This document shows positions 6,118 to 30,694 of a stretch of DNA of 64,000 nt, in pieces. The translations under genes were made by a program, and so were the position numbers. The stretch covers positions 1-64,000 of IMG/VR virus record IMGVR_UViG_3300044825_001003; one strand, given 5' to 3'. The stretch's first letter is position 1. Every line of letters starts with the position of its first letter. Under the pieces are notes generated by a model. That model was given only the letters and a program-made list of their open reading frames with translations, searched no databases and was not told where the DNA came from. This DNA comes from a virus.

Positions 6118-6131
6118 TTTGTTCCGTTCTC

Positions 6132-6374: not shown

Positions 6375-6375
6375 G

Positions 6376-7103: not shown

Positions 7104-7105
7104 GA

Positions 7106-8062: not shown

Positions 8063-8077
8063 TGATTAGTCTCCTTG

Positions 8078-9418: not shown

Positions 9419-9440
9419 TCTCGTTCTCCTTTGGTTTGTG

Positions 9441-9569: not shown

Positions 9570-9571
9570 GG

Positions 9572-9808
9572 TTAAGTCTCCCGTTCGATCTTTGTAATGG
9601 TTCCGTCGTCCTCGACGTAGATGTTGGTCCGGAGGAGAACGTCGAGCGCTCCGTCCGTAAACAGACTGGCCTTGATTCTGCTGCCGGGGTATCGCCTTTT
9701 CGCTTCCGGCTGGCATCCAGTGAAGGTGTCGCCAACTTGCAAGGATGCCGCCCACATTTTTCCCTGCATTAAGGCCGTGTGCAATTCGATAATCTCGTTA
9801 TCAACCAT
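9572..9808 (-). CDS. Hypothetical protein
   Basis: MVDNEIIELH...; fills the operon gap. Confidence 0.6.
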   Translation of the reverse strand: MVDNEIIELHTALMQGKMWAASLQVGDTFTGCQPEAKRRYPGSRIKASLFTDGALDVLLRTNIYVEDDGTITKIERET

Positions 9809-9810
9809 GA

Positions 9811-10713: not shown

Positions 10714-10715
10714 GG

Positions 10716-10928
10716 TTACTTAATCCTCCAGATCCTTACTTCTTTATCGCTCACCGTGCGGATCTTTAGCTTAAACCCGCACCGCCTCGCTACCTCTCCA
10801 GCCGATGTGTGAACGGTTTGTCGCACCTTGAACTCGGTTACAACTAGGCAGTCACCTACCTCTAGCTTCCTCACTTCGGAGGCTATACTCGGCTGAGGCG
10901 TTAAGTCTTTTCTAATCTCTAGCTTCAT
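10716..10928 (-). CDS. Small basic hypothetical protein (possibly DNA-binding)
   Basis: LEVGD...VRIWRIK pattern; RBS AAAGGAGAAC. Confidence 0.7.
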   Translation of the reverse strand: MKLEIRKDLTPQPSIASEVRKLEVGDCLVVTEFKVRQTVHTSAGEVARRCGFKLKIRTVSDKEVRIWRIK

Positions 10929-10940
10929 CGTGTTCTCCTT

Positions 10941-11183
10941 TTACTGAAACTTCAACAGTTCCCATTCCTTTCTGGTGAAGCTCTCGCTAACCTTGGTTAG
11001 CAGTCCCCACTTCTTCGCCGTCACTCTGGCGGCTTCAAGCGCGGCGATATCGTGGTTATCCTCACGGCTGACCTCTCGGTTGACCTTTAAGGTAAACCGC
11101 TGCTTGCCGTTAATGTAGACGGCGATGCAATCCAGCTTGCGCTTCCGGTTCCGCTCGGTGGTTCTGATTTTAATGGTTTCCAT
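10941..11183 (-). CDS. Small basic hypothetical protein
   Basis: Strong RBS AAAGGAGAA. Confidence 0.7.
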   Translation of the reverse strand: METIKIRTTERNRKRKLDCIAVYINGKQRFTLKVNREVSREDNHDIAALEAARVTAKKWGLLTKVSESFTRKEWELLKFQ

Positions 11184-11280
11184 TGTGGTTAATTCTCCTT
11201 TGATTTATCGACGTAGTAATCCACGTCCCCCAGTCCACTAGTCCAACGGATTGGATGAATGGACTGGAAGGGAGGACTGG

Positions 11281-11727
11281 TTATCTCTTAATCGCGTCTC
11301 TCATTTCCCGCATCTGTTTCAGGGCGTCTGATACCGCTCCGATAGCCTGATCGAGAGTGCGTTTAACCTCCTCGACCTCTGTGCCGATTACCGTAGAGCA
11401 GATATCAAGGTCTGATACGGTGCAGTCTAGGTTAACAGCAGCCTTTGTTGCTCTATCTATCGCCGTCTGTAGAAACACTCGCTCTTTCGAGTGTGCCGCA
11501 GCTCCTTCTTCTAGGGACGGAGCAATTAACCTCTTCTCGTTCGCGTCTGAAAGGAGATCCCCCACGGCCTCCGTGAAGGAATCACACATATATGTCATGC
11601 CCTCCAGGTTCTCGTACTCTACATCCTTGCCGTCTTCTATTGGTCCGAAGACAGTACCAATAAATCGGTTACGAAGGTAGACTTGGACGAATTGATTTCC
11701 CTTGTCGTATTTGTAGGTGATCTTCAT
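11281..11727 (-). CDS. Hypothetical protein
   Basis: ORF with RBS AAGGGA. Confidence 0.65.
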   Translation of the reverse strand: MKITYKYDKGNQFVQVYLRNRFIGTVFGPIEDGKDVEYENLEGMTYMCDSFTEAVGDLLSDANEKRLIAPSLEEGAAAHSKERVFLQTAIDRATKAAVNLDCTVSDLDICSTVIGTEVEEVKRTLDQAIGAVSDALKQMREMRDAIKR

Positions 11728-11891
11728 GGTTAGTCCCTTGTAGTCCAGGCCGCGAACCCCGCCGTCATGATGACGCCCAGGATTCCCAGTCTGGTAGCTT
11801 CCGGTGTGCCGCTGGTTACTCCAGCGACAATTATGGACATTGAGGCGACTAGTCCTGCCGCGCAGATAAGGGCTGTCTCGTTAGTCATTGG

Positions 11892-12098
11892 CTAGTTCTC
11901 CCTTGTGTATGCTGGGATAAACCCCCAGCGGTTAGTGTGTACGGGGTTAACTTCGGTTAGCTTGGGGTTAGCGCCGAAGGCGTAATTGCCAAACAGGTCC
12001 ATTGGTCGGGGAGGTGCCGAATGTTGGCACATATAGAACACCTCCCCGTTAATCATGCAGGGATGCTGAGGGCAGCAGAGCCGATTAGGCCAGCTCAT
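11892..12098 (-). CDS. Small hypothetical protein
   Basis: ATGA overlap with 12095..12388. Confidence 0.55.
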   Translation of the reverse strand: MSWPNRLCCPQHPCMINGEVFYMCQHSAPPRPMDLFGNYAFGANPKLTEVNPVHTNRWGFIPAYTREN

Positions 12099-12388
12099 CG
12101 CCCTAGTTCCTCGTTAAGCCAAGCCCAGTTTGTAGCGTCCGTCCATGGGAGGCGCGGCTCGTATTTGCCGTTTTCGCCGTATACGCTGTAATTGTCGCTA
12201 CAGCATCCGCAGCCGTTAGTTTGCTCCTCTAAGTTGGTGCCGATCACAACTACACCCCCGGTTTCGCGCCGGATAACCAACCCGATAGGCAAGCTAAACC
12301 ACGGCCAGTCATCATGTTTGATCCACGGCAGCGTCTCGATTGGTTTCCAGTTCAAAGAATTGGCCAGTCTTTTGAATCGCTCGTTCAT
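12095..12388 (-). CDS. Hypothetical protein (paralogue of 6132..6374)
   Basis: LNWKPIETLPW...LPIGLVI...GGVVVIG...WAWLNE; RBS GGAGG. Confidence 0.7.
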   Translation of the reverse strand: MNERFKRLANSLNWKPIETLPWIKHDDWPWFSLPIGLVIRRETGGVVVIGTNLEEQTNGCGCCSDNYSVYGENGKYEPRLPWTDATNWAWLNEELGR

Positions 12389-12404
12389 TCATCCTCCATG
12401 TAGA

Positions 12405-12433
12405 ATGTTAACAGTTTGCGCGGTTATTGTCAA
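12405..12433 (-). promoter_or_regulatory. sigma70-like early promoter
   Basis: TTGACA-17 nt-TAACAT with an extended TG. Confidence 0.7.
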
Positions 12434-12495
12434 TGCCGATATTCATTTTGAACGTAGAATTATTCGGCGGTTACTGTTAAATCAGTAGTGGGTGG

Positions 12496-13194
12496 TTAGC
12501 CCACTACTTCCAGGCAATTGTGGCAGAGCAGGGCGTGGGAGTATGCCTGAGATTGGAATAGCGGCTCCAATTGCCCGCACCAGTCGCAATAGCTGGTTAC
12601 GGCGCGGTCATAGTCGGTTATGGCGGGCGTGATCTTGGAGGGGGTGTAGTGGTACGTTTTGCGGCGGATTAGAGAATCCTCATTACTGAACCATATACCC
12701 TTGCGCCACAGGCCGCTCGATTCGTTAATGATGGTTAGCGCACCGCTGGCTGCGAGGAAGGTGAGTTTATTCCGTCTGCCTATTTGCCGTCCGATAGCGG
12801 CAGAGAATGATTTGCTGGTAATGTCGCGTTCGGTTACGTTGGCCAGTCGCAACTCGCGGGCGAAGTGCCATGTATCAGACATGGCGGGGTTATCGCATTT
12901 AATGTCCAATACCCCGTTATGCGCCATGAACAGGCGGCGGTTAATGCGGAAGGGGTGACAGTTGTTCGTGTTAACCGCGCCATGCGTAGCCCAGCGGGTG
13001 TGTACGACATGGGGATGCTCTACCGCTTCCTGATAGGCCAGTTTGAGCTTGGATAGGGTTAGCCCGCGCCGGACGGTTACCGCGCCGTTACGGGCGAACA
13101 TGACGCCCCAACCATCCGGGTTGTTGTCATAGGCGGTTTCGAGAATGTCGGGGGAGACGGCGCTCCCCTCCGGTGATGCGATGATAAGGCACAT
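12496..13194 (-). CDS. Class II (Ntn) glutamine amidotransferase, copy B
   Basis: MCLII, NPDGWG, HTRWATHG, NCHPF, AHNGV, SDTWHF, WFSN; C-terminal CxxC..CxxC. Confidence 0.92.
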   Translation of the reverse strand: MCLIIASPEGSAVSPDILETAYDNNPDGWGVMFARNGAVTVRRGLTLSKLKLAYQEAVEHPHVVHTRWATHGAVNTNNCHPFRINRRLFMAHNGVLDIKCDNPAMSDTWHFARELRLANVTERDITSKSFSAAIGRQIGRRNKLTFLAASGALTIINESSGLWRKGIWFSNEDSLIRRKTYHYTPSKITPAITDYDRAVTSYCDWCGQLEPLFQSQAYSHALLCHNCLEVVG

Positions 13195-13196
13195 GG

Positions 13197-14438
13197 TTAG
13201 TTGTCCTCTCCGGTGTTTTCCGCGCCGATAAAGGCGTTCAGATTAGGATACTGCTTACGGTTATCGGCGACGAATTTGATGAAATCCTCCCCGCGCAACT
13301 CCCGATAGCTCCGGTCGCGGGTAAATTCGATGGTCGCCTTTACGAATTCGAGATTTTTGAGGATGCGATCTTTGCGGGTGTTACCCCGGAAGATACGGAA
13401 TTCGATGGTATCGTCGTTTTGCAGGTTAATCGCTTCATAGCGATCATAACTCCGGCCACACTTGCCCATCTTCTTATCGCTCTTCAATCTGGCCCAGCTT
13501 TCACAGTCGCGTTGCGCTACGCGCTTTACCAGCTCCCAGTTTTCCGGCGCGTTAATGAATACCACGATCTTTTGAATATGCATCGGCGTCAATGCGGAGC
13601 GGTTAACATGGACGTGAAAGCCACATCGACCGGAAGTATGGGACGATACGCCCTTGATATTCTCGCGCCAATCGTTAGCCCACAGGGATTTAATGGACTC
13701 CCAATCATGGGGATGCGTCACAATCTCGAATCCCCGCCCAATGCTCCCATCTTCTTTTAGATAGACGTGATCTTCGCCCAGGTTATCCAACGCTTCTTGG
13801 GCGGCGTGATCGAGGTTACGGTCGCTTGCTACGTTAACCTCTAGCTCGCATCCAAAATAAAGCACGCCGTTAGCAGCGCGGTTAGAGCTGGTTTTACCGT
13901 GCCGGAAGAATTCAAGGTCCGGAGAATATCCGTAATTGTGGACTAATCGGCTAGAGTTATTGCCATAGCAATCCTGACAATACGCACCACCGTCATCGTC
14001 GCATAGGACGTCATCTCCGGGCACCAGGATACCGCAATCTTCGCAGCGACAATAATTATCTCGGCAGCTCTCGCATATTTCGCCGCCGTTATGTTCACCG
14101 CAGCTATGGCGGTTATGGCACAATTCGGTACAATCGACGCAGGTAAACGTATTTTCGCGCCAGCAGCGGTTACAGCCGATGTTAGTACGCCCCCAGCCGC
14201 CCCCGGCCATCCGTAGTTCAATCTCACCGTTATAGCTAAGGTCATCTTCCGGCACGTCACGCCCGCATGACGGACATTCGACGCGCTTAGGTTCCCTATC
14301 CGCGCAATCCTCGCAGATATCCAGGGCGGCAACTAGGTCGCCGTTAGCATCTTCTATTACCGGATCGCCATAGTCGGCATCGTGCATCGTGCCATGATTA
14401 ACGATATGCTCGTGGCAGCAAACGCAGGTTATCGGCAT
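13197..14438 (-). CDS. Amidoligase (COOH-NH2 ligase) with N-terminal Zn-ribbon repeats, copy B
   Basis: FGCELEV, KEDGSIGRGFEIVTHP, CGFHVHV, DRYEAIN, TIEFRIFRG. Confidence 0.9.
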   Translation of the reverse strand: MPITCVCCHEHIVNHGTMHDADYGDPVIEDANGDLVAALDICEDCADREPKRVECPSCGRDVPEDDLSYNGEIELRMAGGGWGRTNIGCNRCWRENTFTCVDCTELCHNRHSCGEHNGGEICESCRDNYCRCEDCGILVPGDDVLCDDDGGAYCQDCYGNNSSRLVHNYGYSPDLEFFRHGKTSSNRAANGVLYFGCELEVNVASDRNLDHAAQEALDNLGEDHVYLKEDGSIGRGFEIVTHPHDWESIKSLWANDWRENIKGVSSHTSGRCGFHVHVNRSALTPMHIQKIVVFINAPENWELVKRVAQRDCESWARLKSDKKMGKCGRSYDRYEAINLQNDDTIEFRIFRGNTRKDRILKNLEFVKATIEFTRDRSYRELRGEDFIKFVADNRKQYPNLNAFIGAENTGEDN

Positions 14439-14471
14439 TGTCGGTTAGCTCCTTTATTCGGTTATTCGGGT

Positions 14472-14524
14472 TAATGCAACCGTCCCGGCGCACTATCGGG
14501 TTAATGCGCCGGATGGTAGCACTA
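14472..14524 (-). other. Conserved intergenic RNA hairpin, copy 1
   Basis: Minus strand TAGTGCTACCATCCGGCGCATTA-loop-TAGTGCGCCGGGACGGTTGCATTA; related copy at 15669-15722. Confidence 0.6.
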
Positions 14525-14528
14525 GCGG

Positions 14529-14705
14529 TTATGTGTGAATATATCCGTCTGGTTCCACGCCCCAAAACATCCCGGCGTGGGTAAACGTATAGCACCCCAT
14601 GAGAGGGGAAAAAGTGAGGCGCGATAGGATATCGGCAGCCACGGGCGGATCGAACCGCTTTATAATTGCGTCGGTTACGGGTGCGGGGATTAAATTCTGG
14701 TTCAT
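14529..14705 (-). CDS. Small hypothetical protein (58 aa, below the ORF-track cutoff)
   Basis: MNQNLIPAPVTDAIIKRF...AGMFWGVEPDGYIHT; RBS AAAGGA and a promoter upstream. Confidence 0.7.
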   Translation of the reverse strand: MNQNLIPAPVTDAIIKRFDPPVAADILSRLTFSPLMGCYTFTHAGMFWGVEPDGYIHT

Positions 14706-14724
14706 TGGGTTATTCCTTTATGGG

Positions 14725-14753
14725 ATTATGCGCCGTTATGGGCGGGATTGCAA
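14725..14753 (-). promoter_or_regulatory. sigma70-like early promoter
   Basis: TTGCAA-17 nt-CATAAT. Confidence 0.65.
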
Positions 14754-14854
14754 GGGTTTAACGGTTACCGGGGACGCCGGTTATGGCGCGATTGGTTAAC
14801 CCGGCAGCGGCTATTTTGGCCGCTGCCAGGTTCCCGCCAGGTTTTGCGCCGGTG

Positions 14855-15397
14855 CTATTCGTATCGCGGGCGGCGTTCGGGGGTGAATTCCGGCGGGGTG
14901 TCGCGGTTAATGCGCGCGACATATACGCCGTCAGATAGAACGGATGAAATATCACGCTTCCCTTCATTTGGCCCCCATAGGCGGCTATCCAGCTTGTTGT
15001 TAAGGCGGGTTGTATACTGGCGGGCGGCGCGATGCGTTCGGAACCGTCGCAGGGATCGGGCTAGTTGCGCGGTGTTGTACCACCAACCGCCTTCTTCCCC
15101 TCCCCCGTAGGCCATGTCTTCCAGGTAGACTGACACGATATAGCGGCCCGTGCCGGGGATAGCCCGAAGGCGGGCGATGCGGGCAGCTTCCCGTTCGGCG
15201 GCAGCGCGGCGTTCGGTTTCGAGTTGCGCGGCGGCGGCGGCGCGGGCATCCAGTAATGCGCGGCGGGCTTCCCCGCTATCGAACATGGCGGCGATATTCT
15301 CGCAAGTATCCAGTTCTTTAACCCATTGGGCCGTGCTGTAATAGCGGGTGCGGAGCCGTTCTAGGATGCTAACGGCGCGTTCGTAGGTGATAGGCAT
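14855..15397 (-). CDS. Early hypothetical protein
   Basis: C-terminal VSVYLEDMAYGGGEEGGWWY motif; coupled to the upstream gene. Confidence 0.7.
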   Translation of the reverse strand: MPITYERAVSILERLRTRYYSTAQWVKELDTCENIAAMFDSGEARRALLDARAAAAAQLETERRAAAEREAARIARLRAIPGTGRYIVSVYLEDMAYGGGEEGGWWYNTAQLARSLRRFRTHRAARQYTTRLNNKLDSRLWGPNEGKRDISSVLSDGVYVARINRDTPPEFTPERRPRYE

Positions 15398-15639
15398 TAT
15401 TCGGCCCCCGGTAGCGCCGTAAAAACATATCCGGTAGCCGTGAACCCGCCGTTAAGTTCTGGTAGCGTGATCCAATTGGCGGAGGCGTACATACGAGCGG
15501 CCTCCAGATGATTGGCCGCTATCCCTAGCTCGTAATTCCAGGGATAATACCGCCGCTTATATCCGGCGGCGGATACGCTGATCCGGGACGGCAAGGTGTT
15601 GGTTGCGCCGTGATAGCGCGTGATAATAGCAGAGTACAT
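15397..15639 (-). CDS. Early hypothetical protein
   Basis: AIITRYHGATNTLPSRI; RBS GGAGAA. Confidence 0.7.
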   Translation of the reverse strand: MYSAIITRYHGATNTLPSRISVSAAGYKRRYYPWNYELGIAANHLEAARMYASANWITLPELNGGFTATGYVFTALPGAE

Positions 15640-15668
15640 GATAATTCTCCGTGGTTTGGTTTGAGGCG

Positions 15669-15722
15669 TAATGCTGCCGCCCCGTTACCCCGCCCGCCGC
15701 GAGATACCGGATGGAAGCACTA
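15669..15722 (-). other. Conserved intergenic RNA hairpin, copy 2
   Basis: Minus strand TAGTGCTTCCATCCGG...ACGGGGCGGCAGCATTA. Confidence 0.55.
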
Positions 15723-15727
15723 CTGAT

Positions 15728-16099
15728 TTAAGAGTAGTTGCCGCGTTCTACGATATCGCCCCAGCAACCGACCTTATAATCCCCGTTGACGCGCATAAGG
15801 GTAACGGCGTAAGTATCGCCCGCGTTGACGTATTCAATCGACGGGGAACGCTTCCCCCGTCCGGCGGGGATATATTCGACGCCGTATCCCCCGATTATTT
15901 CGGAAGCGATAGATAGTTTAGTAGTGCATAACTCTAGCGGATGGTAGCAGAATTCGTACCACGATTTAGTGAACGGATACTTTCCGCTATCCAGGGCGGC
16001 TTCCAGGGCGTCTCGTTTGGTAATGCTGAGAATGGCGTGCAGTTCGGCGGCGCGTTCGGCGGCGATTGTTTCGAGTTGCTTGATGCTGGGAATCTTCAT
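15728..16099 (-). CDS. Early hypothetical protein
   Basis: GYGVEYI...YVNAGDTYAVT...WGDIVE; RBS AAGGA. Confidence 0.72.
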   Translation of the reverse strand: MKIPSIKQLETIAAERAAELHAILSITKRDALEAALDSGKYPFTKSWYEFCYHPLELCTTKLSIASEIIGGYGVEYIPAGRGKRSPSIEYVNAGDTYAVTLMRVNGDYKVGCWGDIVERGNYS

Positions 16100-16178
16100 G
16101 CTAGTTTTCCTTAGTTGGTTTGAGGCGGTAAACCGCTCAGTCTAGCCCGCGATTGAATAACGGGCTAACCTGAGAAGA

Positions 16179-16475
16179 CTAGTCGCCGTACTGGGCGGTA
16201 TCGAAGCTAATATCCTCAAAATACATACTCTGGATGTAGGCTTCCGCCGCTTCCGCCGTATCGAACGGGCCGGACCAATCGGTACAGTCGAGATATCCAG
16301 GGGCGGATAGGCGGGCGAAATATCCCGATTTAAGGCGCGCGTCGAATTTATCGCACCCCATAATTTTAGCGGCTTCCTCCCAGCCGAAATAGCGGGAATC
16401 TAGCATATCGCCATTGTTTTCGCTCACCCAAAAATGTCCCCGGATAATTTCCGGCTTCATGAAGCTATCAGACAT
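16179..16475 (-). CDS. Early hypothetical protein
   Basis: GYFARLSAPGYLDCTDWSGPF; RBS GGAGGTG. Confidence 0.72.
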   Translation of the reverse strand: MSDSFMKPEIIRGHFWVSENNGDMLDSRYFGWEEAAKIMGCDKFDARLKSGYFARLSAPGYLDCTDWSGPFDTAEAAEAYIQSMYFEDISFDTAQYGD

Positions 16476-16622
16476 TACAGCACCTCCCTGATGACGATAA
16501 GAGCGGCGACGATAACTGCAAGGCAGATACCGTCATAAATCATGTTCAATAGATTCTTCATTGTCTCGTATCCTTTACTCTGTCGTTTTTACTTTACTGC
16601 TACGCGCCCCGGCGGGCGGGGG

Positions 16623-18847: not shown

Positions 18848-18905
18848 GGTCTGTCAGCCTTTAGGCTACATTGTCAATCATGAAGGGTAATGCTACCATT
18901 GACAC

Positions 18906-19154
18906 ATGGGCGGATCATTTAAGAAGCATCCCATTGGTGGTAATACTACCTCTCGGTCGGAAAAGCTCTGGAAGCGGTTGTGTAACCGGAAGTTGCGGCG
19001 GGCGATCAGCGAGGCGATGCTGCGCTTTGATGATGAGTGTACGGTCATCCCAGTAGTGGATGAGGTAGTGAACAAGTGGGATGGGCCTAAGGACGGTAAG
19101 CGGTACTACGATAAGGGTGAGGTCGGTCGGCATCCGAAGCTTATCCGGAAATAG
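18906..19154 (+). CDS. Small basic hypothetical protein, leaderless
   Basis: TTGTCA-17 nt-TACCAT-6 nt-ATG. Confidence 0.7.
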   Translation: MGGSFKKHPIGGNTTSRSEKLWKRLCNRKLRRAISEAMLRFDDECTVIPVVDEVVNKWDGPKDGKRYYDKGEVGRHPKLIRK

Positions 19155-19441: not shown

Positions 19442-19600
19442 ATGGATAAAGACTACCTGCTCCCAAATGAACCAGTATTAGATAAAGACGTAGCGGAGCC
19501 TGAAGACTTTTCTGCGCTCCACTACTGGGCGCTATCGAATGAAGAATGGCTGAGTCGCATGGCTGAGGTTATTAGGCGGCGTAAGCTCGATAAGTGCTAG
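19442..19600 (+). CDS. Small hypothetical protein (52 aa)
   Basis: Manual translation MDKDYLLPNEP...RRRKLDKC. Confidence 0.45.
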   Translation: MDKDYLLPNEPVLDKDVAEPEDFSALHYWALSNEEWLSRMAEVIRRRKLDKC

Positions 19601-19609
19601 AATCTCTTT

Positions 19610-20305
19610 ATGCATTATCTCGGCGGTAAATTCCGAATTAGAAAACAGATCGCGGCTCATATCCAGCCTTACGTTACAGAGCGGTACTTTGAGCCGTTCT
19701 GCGGATCAGCCTGGGTGGGAGAATTGATCCAGGCTCCGAAGAGAATCTTCTCGGACTCCCACCCTGAACTTATCGCCCTCTGGAACGCCGTGCTTAATGG
19801 CTGGCACCCTCCTGAGCATATATCGGAAGAGGAATACAAGCGGCTAAAAGATGGCGGCGGTCCACCCTACCTGAGAGGATTCGTTGGGTTTGGATGTAGC
19901 TTCTCGGGTAAGTGGTTTGGCGGGTATGCGAGAGATCCTCATTCCGAGCGCAGTTACGCCTCCAATACAAGGAACCAGTTTATCAAGAGACGTAATCTAT
20001 TTAACGGGTCTACATTTATTAACTGGGACTATCGGGATGTTTTTAGCCTACTCCATGAGGGAGATGTGGTTTATTGCGATCCTCCTTATTTTGGGACTAC
20101 CGGGTATAAGGGTACTGATCCTTTTGACCACAATCTATTCTGGGAGAACTGCCGCACTGCTGCACAGTCGGGAGTTAAGATCTTTGTGAGCGAGTACACC
20201 GCGCCAGACTACGCTAAATGCGTACTTGAAATGCCGACAAAGACCTCTCTCCACACAGATAAAGGCGTGGCGCAAGACCGTATCGAGCGACTGTTCACCA
20301 TTTAA
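19610..20305 (+). CDS. DNA adenine methyltransferase (Dam/D12 class)
   Basis: YLGGK, FEPFCGS, YCDPPY, FVSEY; leaderless layout TAGAAT-6 nt-ATG. Confidence 0.93.
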   Translation: MHYLGGKFRIRKQIAAHIQPYVTERYFEPFCGSAWVGELIQAPKRIFSDSHPELIALWNAVLNGWHPPEHISEEEYKRLKDGGGPPYLRGFVGFGCSFSGKWFGGYARDPHSERSYASNTRNQFIKRRNLFNGSTFINWDYRDVFSLLHEGDVVYCDPPYFGTTGYKGTDPFDHNLFWENCRTAAQSGVKIFVSEYTAPDYAKCVLEMPTKTSLHTDKGVAQDRIERLFTI

Positions 20306-21383: not shown

Positions 21384-21760
21384 AAGTAATCATTGCTGGA
21401 TCACGGACTTATCGCGGCGGTGCCGAGGGCGTTCATGTCGCGGTGAAAGAGTCTGGGTTTGACGTGACAACTGTTATTTCGGGAGTTGCCCGTGGCGCGG
21501 ATCTTGCTGGAGAAGACTGGGCATGGGCTAAGGGTATTCCGATTGAGCGATATCCCGCCGACTGGAAGAAGCACGGTCGATCTGCCGGGATGATCCGCAA
21601 CAACCAGATGGCCGAAGCCGCCGATGCTCTCATCGCCCTCTGGGACGGAACAAGTCGCGGCACTCTCCACATGATCTCGAAGATGAAGCTCGACGGAAAA
21701 CCCGTCTTCGTCTATTGGGATAAGAAGTGGTTTGAAGCCTTGACTGAACCCTTTGAATAA
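21380..21760 (+). CDS. SLOG-family (YspA/DUF2493-like) protein
   Basis: KVIIAGSR, VISGVARGAD, YPADWKKHGRSAGMIRNNQM, LWDGTSRGT. Confidence 0.88.
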   Translation: MKVIIAGSRTYRGGAEGVHVAVKESGFDVTTVISGVARGADLAGEDWAWAKGIPIERYPADWKKHGRSAGMIRNNQMAEAADALIALWDGTSRGTLHMISKMKLDGKPVFVYWDKKWFEALTEPFE

Positions 21761-21787
21761 CTGTACAATTGATCGAAAGGAGAACAA

Positions 21788-22006
21788 ATGCCTGTAGTTT
21801 CAACATTTCACATTTCTAGCGAAGGTGAGAATATGGTCACCGTTGGGTTCGAAGGAGGTAAGGTAAACTTTCTTCAGACTCGCGAAAACGGCGACACGAG
21901 CGTTATCCAGATAAACGAGGATATGGCCCGCTTGTTGGTTGACTGCCTCTATGCTGGCATCGGTCTTATCCGAAATGACTTCCGTTCGTCTTTTGATAAG
22001 GAATAA
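21788..22006 (+). CDS. Hypothetical protein
   Basis: RBS CGAAAGGAGAAC. Confidence 0.65.
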   Translation: MPVVSTFHISSEGENMVTVGFEGGKVNFLQTRENGDTSVIQINEDMARLLVDCLYAGIGLIRNDFRSSFDKE

Positions 22007-22008
22007 CA

Positions 22009-22209
22009 ATGTTCAAAAACCTGAATCTTGAATTGAAGAATGAACTCGACAAGCAAGAAGTAAAGATCCTAATGGGCCAGGATGGGACGGTCCATCTGAC
22101 GTTTGGATCTAATACCATGTCCATGAATATTGGGTTCGTTAATGAACTGATCGACGCGCTAACTATCGTCGCAAATGCCCGTCTTCGCATGGGACTGGGG
22201 GAAGAATGA
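22009..22209 (+). CDS. Hypothetical protein
   Basis: RBS AAGGA; operonic. Confidence 0.6.
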   Translation: MFKNLNLELKNELDKQEVKILMGQDGTVHLTFGSNTMSMNIGFVNELIDALTIVANARLRMGLGEE

Positions 22210-22382
22210 AGATACGTCTATATACTGTCGTGGCGGCTCAAACCACTTCTTCGCTAGTGAGGGATGTTAACTCCTACATTCAGGATGGCTACCAACCTTA
22301 CGGCGATATGGTAAAAGATCCAACCTCAACTATGTCGTGGTTCTATCAACCGATGGTAAAGTACGAGGAGAATGAAAAGTGA
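22206..22382 (+). CDS. DUF1737-like small protein (58 aa)
   Basis: YTVV...LVRDVNSYIQDGYQPYG...FYQPMVK; ATGA/GTGA coupling. Confidence 0.65.
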   Translation: MKIRLYTVVAAQTTSSLVRDVNSYIQDGYQPYGDMVKDPTSTMSWFYQPMVKYEENEK

Positions 22383-22579
22383 GCAATAGTCAAAACGTAA
22401 CCGTCAGCTTTCCGTTTCTTGGGATGTTGACCCTTTTGTTTATCGGCCTGAAGCTAACCAACCAGATCTATTGGTCTTGGGTTTGGGTTCTGGCTCCCAT
22501 GTGGGCTCCGATAGCACTACTGTTTCTAGTGCTTGCTATCGTGCTTATCGCTAAGCTCGTTGTGGCAATCTTTGAATAG
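22379..22579 (+). CDS. Small two-helix membrane protein
   Basis: LTLLFIGLKLTNQIYWSWVWVLAPMW. Confidence 0.75.
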   Translation: MSNSQNVTVSFPFLGMLTLLFIGLKLTNQIYWSWVWVLAPMWAPIALLFLVLAIVLIAKLVVAIFE

Positions 22580-22676
22580 CCTTATTAAAGGGAAAGCCCC
22601 TATCCTTTAATAACGACTGCGGTAATTAAAGGATGCTTTAGTTGCAAGAAAAATAATCTTGTGATAGATTAAAAGA

Positions 22677-22736
22677 GTACACAAACGGTCATAGCAGAAA
22701 AGCCCTCGACTCCCCTCCCTCCGGTCGAGGGCTTTT
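22677..22736 (+). ncRNA. Candidate sRNA 1 with a C-rich anti-SD loop
   Basis: TTGCAA(22642)-17 nt-TAGATT(22665) promoter, no ORF, 13-bp stem with loop TCCCCTCCCTCCG, ending TTTT. Confidence 0.55.
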
Positions 22737-22757
22737 GAATTGAGGTAGAATCAAAAC

Positions 22758-22925
22758 ATGGAACAAATCAGTTGCCACACTTGCAAGTACGCCGCAAAGC
22801 TGGCCTCAGCAACCGAGGCCTACTACATATGCTTCCCGATGAATCAGCGCTCAATGGATGTGTCGCAGAAGGGAGCGCCAAACTGGTGCCCTATCTTGCA
22901 ACAGAAAGAGGCGGCGAGTGAGTGA
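22758..22925 (+). CDS. Small 4-Cys protein (55 aa), leaderless
   Basis: MEQISCHTCKY...YICFP...APNWCPIL; TAGAAT-6 nt-ATG. Confidence 0.65.
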   Translation: MEQISCHTCKYAAKLASATEAYYICFPMNQRSMDVSQKGAPNWCPILQQKEAASE

Positions 22926-23136
22926 TTATTCAATTGATACCGACCCTCGCTTTATGGACAAGACCGCAAAGGTGGCACTAGGCAAGCAGGTCAAGGTAAG
23001 CTCGTGCTATAACTGTCCTTTTTATCAGAAAAGCGAACTGAAGGATTGGGAGTTCTGTCATTACGCCGGAAAAGACCTGACCTTGCGGATCGGACAGAAT
23101 TTTCCTATCTGGTGCCCGCTCGAAACCGCCCAATGA
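22918..23136 (+). CDS. Small 4-Cys protein
   Basis: SSCYNCPF...FCHY...FPIWCPL; GTG start. Confidence 0.65.
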   Translation: MSDYSIDTDPRFMDKTAKVALGKQVKVSSCYNCPFYQKSELKDWEFCHYAGKDLTLRIGQNFPIWCPLETAQ

Positions 23137-23354
23137 TACTGCAACTAAACCCTCCATTGCCCATGACTACCTCAAAAGGGCAGGGTTTTGCGCACTTTTT
23201 GATCGACTACAGCCAGGAGCACGACCTGATCTGGGTGGTTTTTATGAAAGATACCGGCCAATGCTGGTCTTTTCCCAATAAAGACGTCAGATTGGACGCA
23301 AATTTCACTCTCGGAACCGGGAAAGACCCTTGGATGTCGTCAAAAACTGACTAA
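23133..23354 (+). CDS. Hypothetical protein
   Basis: MILQLNPPLP...GFAHFLIDYSQEHDLIWVVF; ATGA coupling. Confidence 0.7.
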   Translation: MILQLNPPLPMTTSKGQGFAHFLIDYSQEHDLIWVVFMKDTGQCWSFPNKDVRLDANFTLGTGKDPWMSSKTD

Positions 23355-23363
23355 GGAGACTGA

Positions 23364-23717
23364 ATGTTGAAGATTATTGTGAATAAACCCTCCGCAGGAG
23401 GGGAGCGTGGTCATCTTTGTGCTACTTGCAAGTACTCTGATCGAGTTTCAGGCCCTGGCTGGGAACGAAATCGCTGTACTAGCTTCGGTGAAATCACTCG
23501 TCAAGTCACAGATTGCTCGTGTTATAAGACTCAGGACGAATGCAGGACTGTTCAGGATGCTCCAAACGCCATTCTGAACGCCGCGAAGTACTTTGTCGAG
23601 TACAATGGTGAGTTTTTCTGCTTGAGCTACTCGCAATTCGATGCTTTCGATGGTACTTATGACGACGAAAAGCGGGAAAAGATGATGAGAAAGTGGGGTT
23701 TCCTTCGAGATGAATAA
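23364..23717 (+). CDS. Cys-containing hypothetical protein
   Basis: LCATCKYS...C...DCSCY; RBS AAGGAG. Confidence 0.65.
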   Translation: MLKIIVNKPSAGGERGHLCATCKYSDRVSGPGWERNRCTSFGEITRQVTDCSCYKTQDECRTVQDAPNAILNAAKYFVEYNGEFFCLSYSQFDAFDGTYDDEKREKMMRKWGFLRDE

Positions 23718-23916
23718 GAATCAGACCAAAATCATGGCCGTGATCTACAAAAACCAGAATTCTGGCATCACCCCAGACGATATCGCCAAGCAAGCACGGC
23801 TTTCTAAGGAACTTGTCTCCATGGAATTGGACGCTTTAGAGAAAATCAACGCTATCATGCCCACTCCAGGCTGTCTTTATAAGCCATCTACAGGAAAATT
23901 AAAGATGTTTGCTTGA
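23710..23916 (+). CDS. Small winged-helix protein
   Basis: ITPDDIAKQARLSKELVSMELDALEKINAI, resembling the DprA C-terminal wHTH. Confidence 0.65.
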   Translation: MNKNQTKIMAVIYKNQNSGITPDDIAKQARLSKELVSMELDALEKINAIMPTPGCLYKPSTGKLKMFA

Positions 23917-23947
23917 CGGAGGCTGCTTTTCTTGCTATATTGAAAGT

Positions 23948-24010
23948 GTTAGTTCTCCTTTCGTTTGGTTGGAAGCGGGCGCGGCCTTAAAAGCCACGTC
24001 CGCTTTTTTT
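23948..24010 (+). ncRNA. Candidate sRNA 2 with a 5' anti-Shine-Dalgarno seed
   Basis: TTGACG(23913)-17 nt-TATATT(23936) with extended TG; transcript GTTAGTTCTCCTTTCGTTTGGTTGG followed by a GC hairpin and T7 terminator; no ORF. Confidence 0.72.
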
Positions 24011-24063
24011 ATGCCTAAGTAAAAGATTGAGATTGACTTACCCGCACTGTTAATATTTAATTG

Positions 24064-24342
24064 ATGCCGGTAGACTTCTCCTACATTAAAGATCCAGGAG
24101 CAACGCTAGATTATTCGTTCGATTGGACGGACTGGCTGGGCACCGGAGAGCTTTTGTCTACGGCCACATGGACTGTTCCCGCTGGGCTGACAAAGGTATC
24201 GGAGATAAACAGCGCTTACGTGGCGACTTGTAGGATTAGCGGCGGCGTAGCAGGTGTAACATACACCGTTACATGTCAAGTTACTACCGATTTGGGAGAG
24301 ATTGACCGCAGAAGTCTACAGCTTGTGGTACAAAACCGATAA
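24064..24342 (+). CDS. Small virion/fibre adaptor protein
   Basis: KDPGATLDYSFDWTDWL...ISGG..G.TYTVTC; precedes the fibre gene. Confidence 0.7.
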   Translation: MPVDFSYIKDPGATLDYSFDWTDWLGTGELLSTATWTVPAGLTKVSEINSAYVATCRISGGVAGVTYTVTCQVTTDLGEIDRRSLQLVVQNR

Positions 24343-24343
24343 T

Positions 24344-24502
24344 ATGCAGAATGTAAACGCTCAAATTGAAAGCGCTGAGATTGAAGCCGTAATCATACGT
24401 GCTGACGGAACAAGAGTTAACCTAGGAACAATCGCCTACTACCACCGGAATCCATTGAAGCGATTGATTTACTGGCTAAAGACAAGGATTAAAAGAGGCT
24501 AG
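24344..24502 (+). CDS. Small hypothetical protein
   Basis: IEAVIIRADGTRVNLG. Confidence 0.5.
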   Translation: MQNVNAQIESAEIEAVIIRADGTRVNLGTIAYYHRNPLKRLIYWLKTRIKRG

Positions 24503-24504
24503 AC

Positions 24505-24885
24505 ATGGCAACGGTTTTAACAAACGTCGGCAAGGCGATTACTACAGGGCGAGTCAAGGGTGTCGGATCTGGCGCTGGCTCGGCTGAGCCAAATTACGTA
24601 GCTTGGGGTGTCGGTGCTGGCACCGCCGCCGCGACCGACACTACCCTATTCACCGAGACTGGATCGCGGGTGGCCGGAACCTCCACGCAGCAAACCACAT
24701 CCGTAACCAACGATACCTATCAGGTAGTTGGCACTCTTACGGCTGGTGGTTCTTTGACAATTACCAACGCTGGGCTTTTCGATGCTGCATCTAGCGGCAA
24801 CCTTTATATGAAGGGCGACTTTACCGGCATTGCCCTTACTCTCAACGAGAGCATCCAATTCACGATGAAGGTTCAGTACAGCTAA
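24505..24885 (+). CDS. Tail-fibre-associated structural protein
   Basis: VLTNVGK...YVAWGVG...ITNAGLFDAASSGNL, resembling a fibre N-terminal collar. Confidence 0.75.
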   Translation: MATVLTNVGKAITTGRVKGVGSGAGSAEPNYVAWGVGAGTAAATDTTLFTETGSRVAGTSTQQTTSVTNDTYQVVGTLTAGGSLTITNAGLFDAASSGNLYMKGDFTGIALTLNESIQFTMKVQYS

Positions 24886-24905
24886 GCGTTTAAGCGGAGA
24901 TAAAG

Positions 24906-27900
24906 ATGACGTTCTATAACTTAGTAAAAGTAGCGACTCTAACGACTGGGACTGGAACGGTTTCTCTTGGCTCCGCAGTTCCCGGCTTTATTACATTCTC
25001 TCAAGCCGGTGTTGTAAACGGATCTACGGTATCCTACGCAATCGAGGATGGGTTCAATCGAGAGGCCGGTACTGGTGTTTACAACTCATCGACTGGCACC
25101 CTTACCAGGAATGTCGTCACATCGACGAACTCGAATAACCCGATTGTCCTTTCTGGCAACGCAGTTGTTTTCATTACGCCACTAGCGGCGGATCTGAACT
25201 CGGCTACTACCGCCACTGCGAACACCCTGGCTCTCCGGGACGGTAGTGGTGTTTTAACGGCATCCGGCTTTAGCAACGGTACAAATAGCGCGGTTCTTGG
25301 TGGAAACAACCTAACAACAGCCGGGGCTGTCCCCTATGTGTCGGCAAGTGGTGTCCTGAATCAAGATGCCACGGCTCTGTTTTGGGATGCAGCGAACAAT
25401 CGGTTGGGGGTGGGGACGGCTAGCCCGGCGTTTCCTTTTGTCGTGAGTGATGGCTCCTCTACTGTAGAGGCTAATGCGGCTGGAGGGGCGGCGTTTCTTC
25501 AGTCTGGGAATTCTCCTTTGATTATCGGGAGCAGGAACACCGGGTTTGAGCTTCGCTTCCGCACAGAGGGAACCGAGGGAATGCGCCTTACCGCCACTAC
25601 TCGCAACCTCCTCATCGGTACTTCTACTGATGATGGGGCAAATAGACTGCAAGTATCGGGCAGCACCGGAACTGTTGGCGCTATTGTTCAAAACACCGTA
25701 AGCGGCGGGACGGCAAGGCTCACCCTTTCCAGTCAGTTTGCAAATAGCTACACCAACTCCTACATCGACTACAACCACGGAGCGCAGGCTCTAAAGTTTG
25801 TTTCCGGCAGATCGCTTCTCGGCTATCTCTCGTTCTTCACCTTGGATGTAACTTCCACAGAACAAGAGAGGATGCGACTGACCAACCCCGGCAACCTCCT
25901 CATCGGCACTACCACCGACTCCAACTTCAAGCTCGACGTAGGTTCCAGTGGAAGTGCTGGCACTTTCCGCGTCTACGACCAAGCCAGTCCTACCGGCGTG
26001 ACGAAACTGATAGTCCGGTCCGGGGCGGGGCAGGGTACGACAAACCTGACGGAGTGGCAGAATGTCAGCGGAACGCTTCTTTCCAGTATCTCTTCAAACG
26101 GGGGTTTTCGGGTTGGTAATGTAGTAACTCAAGGGGGTTTTTTTGATGTCCTTAATAATGCCAACTCTACCGTTCTAGGTCTGTGGGTCCGTAACGCAGA
26201 TTCTGGATCATCGGCTCAGGCTGGAATAGCTCTTAATTCGTTTGGCAATAGCTGGGGCATTGGGACTGGGAGTGCTGCTAAAAACTCCAATTCCCTTGTG
26301 TTTGAATTGGATGTCACTGCTCCTTCGGAGAAGATGCGGCTAACGACATCCGCTATCCTTTCCCTGCCGAATGCGGGCGTATACGGGTTCTCTTCAACTA
26401 CGTCATCTGGCGGGACCCTCGACCTCTCCCTCTCCCGCGCCTCTGCGGGTGTTCTTCAGGTAGGGGATGGGGGGAGTAATGCGAATGGGCAGATTAACGC
26501 AATCCGTTCTATTCTCACAGATACGGCTGCATCTGGAAACGTGCTGACTGTTTACAATAGCAACTTATCAAATCCAGGAGAACACATACGACTTGGATTT
26601 AATGACAATTATCGCTGGTCTTTGTCCAGGAACATCTCTTCTGGCAACCTTACATTTAGGTATCAAAATGTCGCCGTTAGCGCGACCCTAAATAGCGTTA
26701 TGGAGTTGGCTGAATCCGGCACCCTATCGCTGTACAACCAGACCCCCACTACCGGCGTAACCCGTGCCGTTATCCGCGCCGGGGCGGGGCAGAGTACAAA
26801 TAACCTGACGGAGTGGCAGAACGCGAGTGCGACTGTACTGTCCGGCGTTGCTTCTAACGGTAGCTTTTTTGTTCAAAATTTCGGCGGGCTATTTAACGCT
26901 GGCGGAAGTGCTGGGTTTTACGTTGGCTCAAATAGCTTTGCGATTCGTACTAATACCACCGATGACCGGCTTGTTGTCCAGTCTACGGGCATTGTGTCTT
27001 TCGGTGGGTCTACCGCCTCCTTCCCGGCGCTGAAGCGGTCTAGCACAACCCTAGAAGTAAGACTAGCTGATGACTCCGCTCTAACGGCCATCTCTGCCGG
27101 TCAGTCTACGTTTGATGGGCTAACGGTAGGGCGCGGTGCGGGGTCAGTTACAGATAACACTGCGGTTGGCCTAAACGCTCTTCAAGCTAACACAACCGGA
27201 ACCCAGAACTCTGCTTTTGGCAGGGGAGCTTTATTTACAAACTCAACTGGAAACTTCAATACGGCAATTGGGAGATTCTCTCTTTACTCCAATACGAGCG
27301 GTGGTGGGAATGTCGCCTTGGGTGGCGGTTCGCTATACACCAATACGACTGGTTCAGATAATACAGCAGGCGGCGTTAACGCTCTGTTTCTCAATCTAAC
27401 AGGGAGCAATAACACAGTATTTGGGACCAGCTCGATGTATAGCAATAGCAGTGGTTTGGATAACGCTGCTTTTGGGAATGGCTGTTTGATTTCAAACACA
27501 ACTGGATCAAGGAATGTAGCGGTTGGACTTGAAGCTGGATACACAGCCACTGCTGCCAACGCCAATACAACTGGTTCTAATAATGTGTGGATCGGATATC
27601 GGTCCGGCCCCGCATCCACTGTACAGCGGACCAACTCTGTAGCTATCGGATATCAAGCTCTGGTTGGTGCCGACAATGCTGGCGTCCTCGGTACTGCTGG
27701 GATGAAGTGGTCTGTCGGTGGTCAGACGGTGCCTAGTGCAACGCTACACGTTGAAAATACAAGCGCTTCGGTGACCGAAGCTACCAAATTGGTAGTAAAG
27801 GCCGCGACCAACCAGAGCACGACACCATTACAAGACTGGCAGAACAGTTCTGGTACTCAATTAGCTTTAGTTAGCAGCGTTGGTGCTATTAGGTCTGATA

Positions 27901-28970
27901 ATTTCGTAACGCTAAACTCTGATAACTGGAATGTGAATCAGGGTAATATGTCGTTCGCCAGTACTAGGCTGGTTGCTTGGTCAAACTCATCTACTGATTC
28001 CTATGGGACTAAGGATATTTCTCTTACTAGGGCCTCCGCTGGTGTTCTCCAGGTGGGGGATGGGGCGGCGAATGCGAACGGGACGGTCAATGCTAAGATA
28101 GCTAATTTCCTCTCTGCTGACTCTTCCGCAACAACCTTTACGACTGGAATTGCATCTCAAAGAGTACAGTTTTACTTTGACTCTGTGGTTCCAAGAAGTT
28201 CCCTATTGTTCCAGAATGGACGGTTTGAGATCTACGATCAAACCAGTGCTATTACCCGCCTCTTCATCCAGGCAACGACCGGAAATATTTCAATTGGCGG
28301 TGTGAATAACCCTTCGGACCCCAACTTTAAGCTCGACGTTGCCTCTTCCGGTTCTTCCGGTACTTTCCGCGTCTACGACCAGACCGCTCCTACCGGCGTA
28401 ACCCGCGCCGTTATCCGCGCCGGAGCAGGGCAGAGTACGACAAACCTGCAAGAGTGGCAGAATAGTGGCGGGGGGGTGATTACTTACATCGCTAATACTG
28501 GTGATATTGTCTCGACTGCTTCTATTCAATCTCCATTCTTTCTTGGGGCAGACAATTCTGCAGCGTATATTGTGCTAAGGGGGGCTGGCGGCGCTTCGGC
28601 TTTCGCTGGTTTGTCTCGGGGGCAGTCTCAATTTGCTGTCTTTAGCGATTATAAGATTGGCTTCCTCTCTGGAACGAATGTAAACGCAACCACTACCAGC
28701 GCCGATACAGCTATAGCGAGAAACGCTGCTGGCGTCCTTGAGATCAACAACGGAACCGCTGGCACCTACCGCGACCTGATCCTGCGCCGCTCTCAACACA
28801 ATGGCGTAACTGTATCCGCCCTCCCCGCCGCCGCCGCCGGAAACGCTGGCTCTATCCAGTACGTCACCGATGCCAACGCTACAACAATTGGATCGACGGT
28901 TGTTGGTGGTGGTGCTAACAAAGTCATGGTCTGGTCCGATGGGGCCGCATGGAAAATTTTCGCAAGCTAA
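24906..28970 (+). CDS. Modular tail fibre (1354 aa)
   Basis: G/S/T/A/N-rich; ERMRLT..GNLLIGTT repeats, NTAxG beta-roll repeats, recurring GAGQSTTNLxEWQN linkers. Confidence 0.88.
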   Translation: MTFYNLVKVATLTTGTGTVSLGSAVPGFITFSQAGVVNGSTVSYAIEDGFNREAGTGVYNSSTGTLTRNVVTSTNSNNPIVLSGNAVVFITPLAADLNSATTATANTLALRDGSGVLTASGFSNGTNSAVLGGNNLTTAGAVPYVSASGVLNQDATALFWDAANNRLGVGTASPAFPFVVSDGSSTVEANAAGGAAFLQSGNSPLIIGSRNTGFELRFRTEGTEGMRLTATTRNLLIGTSTDDGANRLQVSGSTGTVGAIVQNTVSGGTARLTLSSQFANSYTNSYIDYNHGAQALKFVSGRSLLGYLSFFTLDVTSTEQERMRLTNPGNLLIGTTTDSNFKLDVGSSGSAGTFRVYDQASPTGVTKLIVRSGAGQGTTNLTEWQNVSGTLLSSISSNGGFRVGNVVTQGGFFDVLNNANSTVLGLWVRNADSGSSAQAGIALNSFGNSWGIGTGSAAKNSNSLVFELDVTAPSEKMRLTTSAILSLPNAGVYGFSSTTSSGGTLDLSLSRASAGVLQVGDGGSNANGQINAIRSILTDTAASGNVLTVYNSNLSNPGEHIRLGFNDNYRWSLSRNISSGNLTFRYQNVAVSATLNSVMELAESGTLSLYNQTPTTGVTRAVIRAGAGQSTNNLTEWQNASATVLSGVASNGSFFVQNFGGLFNAGGSAGFYVGSNSFAIRTNTTDDRLVVQSTGIVSFGGSTASFPALKRSSTTLEVRLADDSALTAISAGQSTFDGLTVGRGAGSVTDNTAVGLNALQANTTGTQNSAFGRGALFTNSTGNFNTAIGRFSLYSNTSGGGNVALGGGSLYTNTTGSDNTAGGVNALFLNLTGSNNTVFGTSSMYSNSSGLDNAAFGNGCLISNTTGSRNVAVGLEAGYTATAANANTTGSNNVWIGYRSGPASTVQRTNSVAIGYQALVGADNAGVLGTAGMKWSVGGQTVPSATLHVENTSASVTEATKLVVKAATNQSTTPLQDWQNSSGTQLALVSSVGAIRSDNFVTLNSDNWNVNQGNMSFASTRLVAWSNSSTDSYGTKDISLTRASAGVLQVGDGAANANGTVNAKIANFLSADSSATTFTTGIASQRVQFYFDSVVPRSSLLFQNGRFEIYDQTSAITRLFIQATTGNISIGGVNNPSDPNFKLDVASSGSSGTFRVYDQTAPTGVTRAVIRAGAGQSTTNLQEWQNSGGGVITYIANTGDIVSTASIQSPFFLGADNSAAYIVLRGAGGASAFAGLSRGQSQFAVFSDYKIGFLSGTNVNATTTSADTAIARNAAGVLEINNGTAGTYRDLILRRSQHNGVTVSALPAAAAGNAGSIQYVTDANATTIGSTVVGGGANKVMVWSDGAAWKIFAS

Positions 28971-29757: not shown

Positions 29758-30252
29758 ATGGAAAACAAAAAGCCAAAGCTAGTCCCTAGCGCAATCGAAA
29801 TGCCGTCCACGCAGAGGAATAATCTGGTAAACATGCTGAACCAGAGCCTCGCTGATTTAACCGACTTAAAGACCCACGCCAAGCAAGCCCACTGGAACGT
29901 GCAAGGGGAGAACTTCACCACCTACCATAAGCTGTTTGATAAGGTGGCAGAAGAGGCCGATAGCGCTGCTGATCTAGCAGCTGAGCGCTGCGCCCAGATC
30001 GGTGGATTCGTCCATGGCCGACTGTCGGACGCCGCTAAAAACACGACCGTACCTGCGTTCCCTGAGGGTATTACCCAGGATCACAAGTGCCTAGAAGCCG
30101 TGCTTAACAGCTTGTCTCATGTGGTTGAGCAGTGCCGTAGGAATATCGAAGACGCAGAGGACAATGGCGACTACGCTACGTCTGATATGTATATCGACAT
30201 CACTCGCGGACTTGATAAGCTTCTGTGGATGGTAAACGCCTCTAGCCTATAG
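29758..30252 (+). CDS. dps: Dps (DNA protection during starvation, mini-ferritin)
   Basis: KQAHWNVQGENFTTYHKLFD, DLAAERCAQIGG and LDKLLWMV ferroxidase signatures. Confidence 0.95.
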   Translation: MENKKPKLVPSAIEMPSTQRNNLVNMLNQSLADLTDLKTHAKQAHWNVQGENFTTYHKLFDKVAEEADSAADLAAERCAQIGGFVHGRLSDAAKNTTVPAFPEGITQDHKCLEAVLNSLSHVVEQCRRNIEDAEDNGDYATSDMYIDITRGLDKLLWMVNASSL

Positions 30253-30255
30253 CGC

Positions 30256-30284
30256 TTGACACGTCGCTGGTAGATTTGTAGAAT
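30256..30284 (+). promoter_or_regulatory. Near-consensus sigma70 promoter
   Basis: TTGACA-17 nt-TAGAAT, 8 nt before ATG 30293. Confidence 0.75.
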
Positions 30285-30292
30285 AGTAAAAC

Positions 30293-30694
30293 ATGGCGCA
30301 AACAGGATACATCTTCATTAGGAACGGGACTCCTATCCCTGAGAACAACGAGTATTATCGGCTAAACGGAGAGATGAAAAAGGCGGAAAAAACTGGAATC
30401 CGCCCACTTCATGCATCTATTTACATGAAATGGGAAGATTACATCCGCCCTTCTAGCGACCCCGTGTGCATTGAAATGGAAGACTATTTTGGAAACCTTA
30501 AAATCAGAATTGACGCTAATGATGACGGCATTATGACCGTGGCGTTTCCCAATGCTGAGATCATCGAGACTGAAGACGGGCCCATGATGGGCTTTCGTTG
30601 TGATGTAAATGCGGCCATGTGGATTGGCGGCGCGATTGTCAGCGCTGCTTTTGAATATGCAACTGGCGGTGGAGAAGAGGACGACGATGAATGA
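30293..30694 (+). CDS. Hypothetical protein
   Basis: ORF downstream of the consensus promoter. Confidence 0.65.
   Translation: MAQTGYIFIRNGTPIPENNEYYRLNGEMKKAEKTGIRPLHASIYMKWEDYIRPSSDPVCIEMEDYFGNLKIRIDANDDGIMTVAFPNAEIIETEDGPMMGFRCDVNAAMWIGGAIVSAAFEYATGGGEEDDDE

Follow-up and report, generated by a model that had tools for sequence, protein, structure and literature searches.

The DNA stretch analysed here (the window) covers the opening 64 kb of an IMG/VR phage record that is complete at 102,748 bp (G0, also written G000), with genes on the minus strand from 1 to 16600 and on the plus strand from 17700 to 64000. Amid a series of small plus-strand genes, a 178-nt gap (22580-22757) separates a 66-aa membrane ORF from a 55-aa cysteine-rich ORF (ORF55, 22758..22925, plus strand), and it contains the feature under study, here called unit A. 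The phage is large, uncultured and probably lytic. Its DNA occurs in freshwater, wastewater, and drinking-water metagenomes, and the sequencing runs in which the stretch was found include no RNA run; a search of bacterial genomes gave no match, and blastn against cultured phages found no DNA match. Identity of the portal, terminase, and capsid proteins to their counterparts in cultured phages does not exceed 28%, and the hosts of those phages span several phyla.

At the sequence level, the promoter TTGCAA-17-TAGATT claimed in the preliminary description is present, with the -35-like hexamer TTGCAA at 22642..22647 (plus strand) and the -10 TAGATT at 22665-22670 after a 17-nt spacer. That description had not remarked that the -10 is extended: a TG at 22662-22663 gives TGaTAGATT (22662..22670), which is identical in the related contig L138 and agrees with the sigma-70 form TGnTAnnnT that is conserved across the relatives. 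Only 8 of the 12 hexamer positions agree with the consensus, which falls short of the threshold set in the promoter scan, and hence the site was not listed there. Downstream, we predict a non-coding RNA of about 60 nt (unit-A RNA, 22677..22736, plus strand), setting its 5′ end 7 nt past the -10 and its 3′ end at the U run. No AUG occurs from about 22677 to 22736, so the stretch is as free of ORFs as claimed, and about 20 nt without a start codon precede the hairpin.

The perfect 13-bp stem described earlier was also found, at 22698..22736, both by folding and by a hairpin scan of the genome. It combines a 9-bp GC core with AAAA/UUUU, and consists of the 5′ arm AAAAGCCCTCGAC (22698-22710), a 13-nt loop TCCCCTCCCTCCG (22711-22723), and the 3′ arm GTCGAGGGCTTTT (22724-22736). 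The loop, UCCCCUCCCUCCG, holds the anti-Shine-Dalgarno (anti-SD) core CCUCC twice, as had been reported; the two copies share one C, and both have a predicted unpaired probability of at least 0.99. The predicted fold has a free energy of -21.8 kcal/mol (z = -4.0), and none of 200 shuffles was as stable. It is the longest perfect hairpin in the 102,748-bp genome, which contains 16 perfect hairpins of at least 9 bp against 2-10 in five shuffles.

This 13-bp hairpin probably acts as an intrinsic terminator. It has the 9-bp GC core, a loop of 13 nt, and on its 3′ side the U tract UUUUGAAUU, with only four consecutive U followed by GAAUU. The terminator scan lists at unit A solely an alternative 5-bp hairpin (22717-22731). 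With just four U and a loop longer than terminators usually have, the hairpin may let much transcription through into ORF55. Just upstream of the promoter, positions 22582-22634 form two overlapping perfect 10-bp AT-rich hairpins, which contain three copies of TTAAAGG; these hairpins are not present in L138 and could be an operator or an alternative fold.

Three relatives allowed a comparison: G001 (97 kb) and G002 (94 kb), near-complete genomes reached via the portal protein (90% identity), and L138, a metagenome contig reached via the ORF55 alignment (80% identity). G0 and these three carry exactly two units each, at the same two positions. In all four, unit A lies directly upstream of ORF55, whose homologues are 44-80% identical, and unit B lies directly downstream of a 67/68-aa ORF. 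The proposed partnership with a unit at 23.95 kb is thus supported, as both positions have the same design in four related genomes. In G0, the partner unit B (23913..24010, plus strand) consists of TTGACG-17-TGcTATATT, the 5′ single strand UUCUCCUUUCG, and a terminator with U7. The gene order around the units is partly kept: ORF55 is followed in turn by a 73-aa ORF and the 67/68-aa ORF, and three of the four genomes then have a 93-aa ORF.

All eight units present an extended -10 of the form TGnTAnnnT (TGaTAGATT, TGcTATATT, TGcTATAAT or TGcTACAAT) 31-46 nt before the stem, then an AUG-free stretch, and finally a hairpin that is rich in GC and carries a U run; RNAs of 58-78 nt are predicted. YCUCC is exposed in the loop or in a 5′ single strand in every unit, at two or three copies per genome. 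The loop motifs have an unpaired probability of at least 0.97 across the units, so that each offers the accessible UCCC/CCUCC by which C-rich seed-loop sRNAs are recognized. For unit A, the loop is UCCCCUCCCUCCG in G0, CCCCCUCCUUCCG in L138, and UUUCCUCCUUU in both G001 and G002, where it is accompanied by the 5′ single strand CACCUCCUUUCGG. For unit B, G0 and L138 expose the motif in the 5′ single strand UUCUCCUUUCG, whereas G001 and G002 have CCUCC or CUCC in the loop (UUUUUCUCCUUUA in G001, CUUUCCUCCUUUA in G002). This family, though real, does not extend beyond a narrow clade of uncultured phages from freshwater, and our sample of four genomes represents about two independent lineages.

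Conservation of the loop in homologues, which the preliminary description had proposed to check, was found: CCUCC is kept while the stems change. The unit-A stem is GCCCUCGAC in G0 and L138 and CCCCCGGC in G001 and G002; these sequences are unrelated, despite homologous 5′ ends (GUAC...CAUAGCA) and promoters in the two groups. In the four-genome alignment of unit A, CCUCC forms an invariant block in the loop, and at 3 of the 10 stem pairs both bases have changed with pairing preserved. For unit B, G0 and L138 differ by one compensatory change and one G-U to G-C change, and G001 and G002 by one compensatory change, with zero pairs broken in either comparison. An exception is unit A of L138, where a single substitution both opens the top two pairs of the stem and abolishes the second CCUCC.

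Between G0 and L138, the non-coding units are about 91% (unit A) and 88% (unit B) identical, with 73% for ORF55, 82% for ORF74, and 68% for ORF93. Their homology starts exactly at the extended -10 of unit A, and the DNA upstream is unrelated; amid this unrelated DNA, both have a -35-like hexamer at 17-nt spacing, TTGCAA in G0 and TAGACA in L138.

Natural variants at the locus were obtained by comparing DNA contigs from four metagenomes over 21500-24500. One contig, X7, is collinear through the promoter and the hairpin and misses one A of the AAAA run. In another, X4, 3,153 nt take the place of 22632-22690, and with it of the promoter and the 5′ part; the hairpin is still joined to ORF55, and no differing letters were reported between 22691 and 22755. 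G001 and G002 have about 3 kb of methyltransferase (methylase) and peptidase-like genes at the position of the X4 insert, followed by their own promoter. Their 5′ part, on the 3′ side of the methylase genes, shares CAUAGCA with G0, and on these grounds X4 may be a recombinant in which a promoter persists.

A hairpin of this kind could be the ordinary terminator of the upstream operon, possibly at a mosaic junction, with the loop and the promoter-like hexamers incidental. It stands 118 nt past the stop of ORF 22379-22579 with no other terminator between, its A-tract/U-tract shape is typical, and synteny breakpoints lie close by. However, among all terminator-like hairpins of G0, G001, and G002, an extended -10 and CTCC are combined only in the six units. 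As a control, we examined the 186 terminator-like hairpins in 1.62 Mb of DNA from other phages: 9 of them have an extended -10 this far from the stem, against all eight units here, and 3 of the 186 have YCUCC in the loop, against an exposed YCUCC in every unit; a single control hairpin has both. These counts make a plain terminator with an incidental loop unlikely. The 5′ part of unit A is, besides, 92% conserved between G0 and L138 while the ORFs diverge, and altogether we regard the plain terminator as highly improbable.

In the search for further relatives, an IMG/VR scan for the unit-A stem with any loop gave 87 matches, all unrelated, and a 19-mer from the unit-A 5′ part gave none. No syntenic relatives were found with the 1354-aa, 117-aa, and 93-aa neighbour proteins, and five partial relatives reached via the portal protein are without ORF55. 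Two more distant ORF55 homologues are known (P0002 and P0004), and an IMG/VR scan with P0002 returned only G001. The 73-aa ORF (23133-23354) is 79-95% identical in close relatives and has more than 200 relatives in IMG/VR contigs of otherwise different phages; a family name for it was sought and not found. At eighty loci of other phages with this ORF, the unit is absent, save one look-alike. This lies on an unrelated phage contig (L208:5309-5338) and consists of TGgTAGTAT, 27 nt, and then a hairpin that has a CCCCUCC loop and a U run; this may be an analogue that arose independently.

Taken together, we give roughly even odds to a reading of 22662-22736 as the gene of a small non-coding RNA, half of a conserved pair, whose exposed anti-SD motif would pair with SD regions. 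The look of a small non-coding gene, as first proposed, is supported. What we computed directly is the anatomy and conservation of the units, their exposed motif, how the stems vary, and that no ORF is present. Transcription would start near 22677 from an extended -10 promoter of the sigma-70 type, and most transcripts would end near 22736, at the 13-bp hairpin and its U run. This would yield an RNA of about 60 nt whose 13-nt loop presents CCUCC twice. This loop could pair with purine-rich SD regions (GGAGG/GGGAGG type) of phage and/or host mRNAs, and such pairing would block 30S binding. Transcription, termination, pairing in trans, and the targets are what we infer from the sequence. Against this reading count the modest match of the promoter hexamers, the short U tract with its long loop, the broken pairs in L138, and the small number of genomes.

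Another reading takes unit A as a cis-acting 5′ leader of the ORF55 operon, its promoter driving ORF55 and the genes after it; we consider this plausible, though less likely than an sRNA. Such a leader could be a promoter-proximal attenuator with regulated read-through, as at lambda pR′-6S-tR′, could end transcription prematurely with the RNA as a by-product, or could aid weak-SD translation with its pyrimidine-rich loop serving as a binding site. The position of unit A beside ORF55 in all four genomes speaks for a leader and counts against an sRNA, and the linkage of the hairpin to ORF55 is kept in X4, where the promoter region is replaced. However, the same unit-B design stands before different downstream genes, a Dps-like gene in G002 and ORF93 in the others, which argues against a leader tied to one gene. 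The U tract of unit A is only four U in both G0 and L138, in favour of read-through, but long U runs follow the hairpin in G001 and G002.

The start of ORF55 can be read both ways. Its SD is a distant GAGG, 12 nt from the ATG, and is absent in G001 and G002, and the 21 nt from the hairpin to the ATG are 90% conserved between G0 and L138, all as a leader would have it. On the other hand, a -10-like hexamer, TAGAAT (22746..22751, plus strand), ends 6 nt before the ATG, and this geometry is the same in all four genomes (TAGAAT also in L138, TGnTAAGAT in G001 and G002). It may be a promoter for a leaderless ORF55 mRNA, which suggests that the gene has its own start of transcription. Sequestration of the ORF55 SD in cis by the loop was ruled out, as no SD is there in G001 and G002. 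The GGAGG of the loop on the minus strand was likewise ruled out as an SD, since neither a start codon nor a minus-strand gene follows.

The gene content downstream adds some context. Three small ORFs (22758-22925, 22912-23136, and 23364-23717) have a common CxxC...C...WCP-like cysteine pattern and may be zinc-binding paralogues; the third is missing from the L138, X7, and X11 relatives (the comparison skips 345). The genes after unit B (24061-28970) are tail-fibre/tailspike-like, with a match to PHROG 4137, a Gp80-like match that misses the Pfam cutoff, and a tailspike of 1354 aa, so unit B marks the border with the small early-type genes. A control point of a late operon would be expected at such a border, in favour of a leader. 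In phage lambda, pR′-6S RNA-tR′ comprises a constitutive promoter and a short transcript that is terminated closely before a block of genes, and unit B resembles it in sitting before tail genes. It differs in that there are two units here and that Q-type antitermination has no use for the conserved CCUCC. We found neither a Q-like gene nor a Q-binding element, and the neighbouring ORFs, none of them recognised as Q-like or N-like, have no Pfam or PHROG match to the Q/N families, with remote homologues possible. An alternative antiterminator fold was sought and none was predicted, and a leader gives no role to the retained CCUCC.

The motif could also serve without any antisense pairing, if the RNA were a decoy that mimics the 3′ tail of 16S rRNA and titrates a CCUCCUU-recognising protein or RNA, for instance a nuclease of host or phage, some ribosome-associated factor, or a sponge partner that resembles an SD. 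Every genome has two or three exposed copies of the motif, and within the family it extends to CCUCCUUU. In the 5′ single strand of G001 unit A (L121:4205-4275, minus strand) it extends to GAUCACCUCCUUUC, which equals the usual 16S 3′ end over 14 nt. The GAUCA part of this match is, however, not kept: UAGCA stands there in G002 and G0. The G002 counterpart of this strand is AGCACCUCCUUUC. The loop of G0, CCCCUCCCUCC, bears less resemblance to the 16S tail, and no candidate binding protein was identified. We therefore hold a decoy to be quite improbable.

For the preferred reading, an anti-SD sRNA, several precedents exist. C-rich-loop sRNAs that occlude ribosome-binding sites (RBSs) are established in bacteria and in one staphylococcal prophage. 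RsaE/RoxS in Firmicutes and 6C RNA in Actinobacteria use exposed C-rich motifs to seed pairing with G-rich SD regions. Unlike the phage units, they are host-encoded and have a different architecture, and the phage units have no Rfam match to them.

A further precedent is the cuckoo/ar14 family of Alphaproteobacteria sRNAs (RSs0680a-d = CcsR1-4, SmelC397, and others), which are chromosomal in Rhizobiales and Rhodobacterales, consist of 2-4 adjacent hairpins each with CCUCCUCCC, and have RBS occlusion as the proposed mechanism (PMC4615179). Both have an anti-SD-like pyrimidine loop, compensatorily variable stems, and several copies per genome; the phage units differ by one hairpin per RNA, the loops CCCCUCCCUCC or UUUCCUCCUUU, and their place in a phage genome. 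Unit A is a single hairpin whose loop UCCCCUCCCUCCG has CCUCC twice and not CCUCCUCCC. The Rfam covariance models gave no ar14-type match at E <= 10 over 22500-24100, and across the entire window every family stayed below its gathering score.

SprX (RsaOR) of Staphylococcus aureus is encoded by converting phages, and its CUCCCCG loop pairs with the SD and start codon of its target and blocks ribosome loading (PMC4005690). Like unit A, it is phage-borne and has an accessible C-rich loop with the UCCC signature. It is, however, about 150 nt long with four hairpins, belongs to temperate staphylococcal phages, and regulates a host gene (PMC4005690), whereas unit A is about 60 nt with one hairpin, occurs as paired units in a phage that is large and uncultured, and shows no similarity to it in sequence. 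By analogy, the phage unit may function like the cuckoo/ar14 and the staphylococcal C-rich-loop sRNAs, outside any Rfam family. In a 2025 review of phage-derived sRNAs, the terms 'anti-SD' and 'C-rich' are absent (PMC12197685).

Regarding targets, the preliminary description had named the leaders of 12388, 16475, and 21380, which did not stand out: they have just 5-7 nt of generic SD complementarity, and the best predicted site is elsewhere. Besides its own antisense, the best site for the unit-A loop in the whole genome is the RBS of the minus-strand ORF G000:97437-97703, outside the window, with a predicted pairing energy of -29.3 kcal/mol. None of 300 composition-preserving shuffled seeds matched this value on any initiation region. 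The candidate RBS (G000:C1:97701-97726, minus strand) reads CCGGA-GAGTTC (a 6-nt bulge)-GGGAGGGGAG-AG-ATG, with complementarity to each of the 15 nt made up by the unit-A loop and its closing bases. The ORF encodes 88 aa of no clear family and adjoins an RNA ligase gene and three tRNA genes. It would be the best candidate site for the RNA.

Other tests did not single out a target. ORF 97437-97703 has no homologue in G001 or G002, and no co-variation of loop and RBS was found among the shared genes. The 5′ 25 nt of unit A, taken as a second seed against the genome, had complementarity at chance level only. In predicted pairing, the unit-A loop favours G-rich sites and unit B favours AAAGGAGAAC leaders. 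Because CCUCC is complementary to any SD, no specific target can be picked out.

Translation signals differ between the strands of this phage in a way that suits an anti-SD RNA. The minus-strand genes have strong SDs of the AAAGGAGAAC/AAGGAG(AAC) or GGGAGG type, with a median anti-SD pairing of -7.4 kcal/mol, compared to -3.95 kcal/mol for the plus-strand genes. A near-consensus -10 ends 5-8 nt before the ATG of the plus-strand ORFs 18906, 19610, 22758, 24064, 30293, and 78587. Sites of this kind lie on the plus strand at 18871-18908, 19595-19612, 22746-22760, 24027-24066, 30250-30295, 39800-39843, and G000:78573-78589, many with an upstream TG and some with a -35. A -10 abutting the ATG suggests several leaderless mRNAs, which would escape an anti-SD RNA.

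A bolder version of the sRNA reading, which we think unlikely, is that the two anti-SD-mimic sRNAs switch the mode of translation. They would mask the strong AAGGAG/GGGAGG SDs on host mRNAs and on the minus-strand early genes of the phage, and the leaderless or weak-SD operons of the plus strand would escape.

If the sRNA reading is true, this minimal pair of anti-SD RNAs of about 60 nt would show that phages use RBS occlusion during infection. Moreover, strong-SD genes and leaderless or weak-SD genes occupy opposite strands of this phage, which makes for a testable idea, that of an RNA-based reprogramming of ribosome loading.
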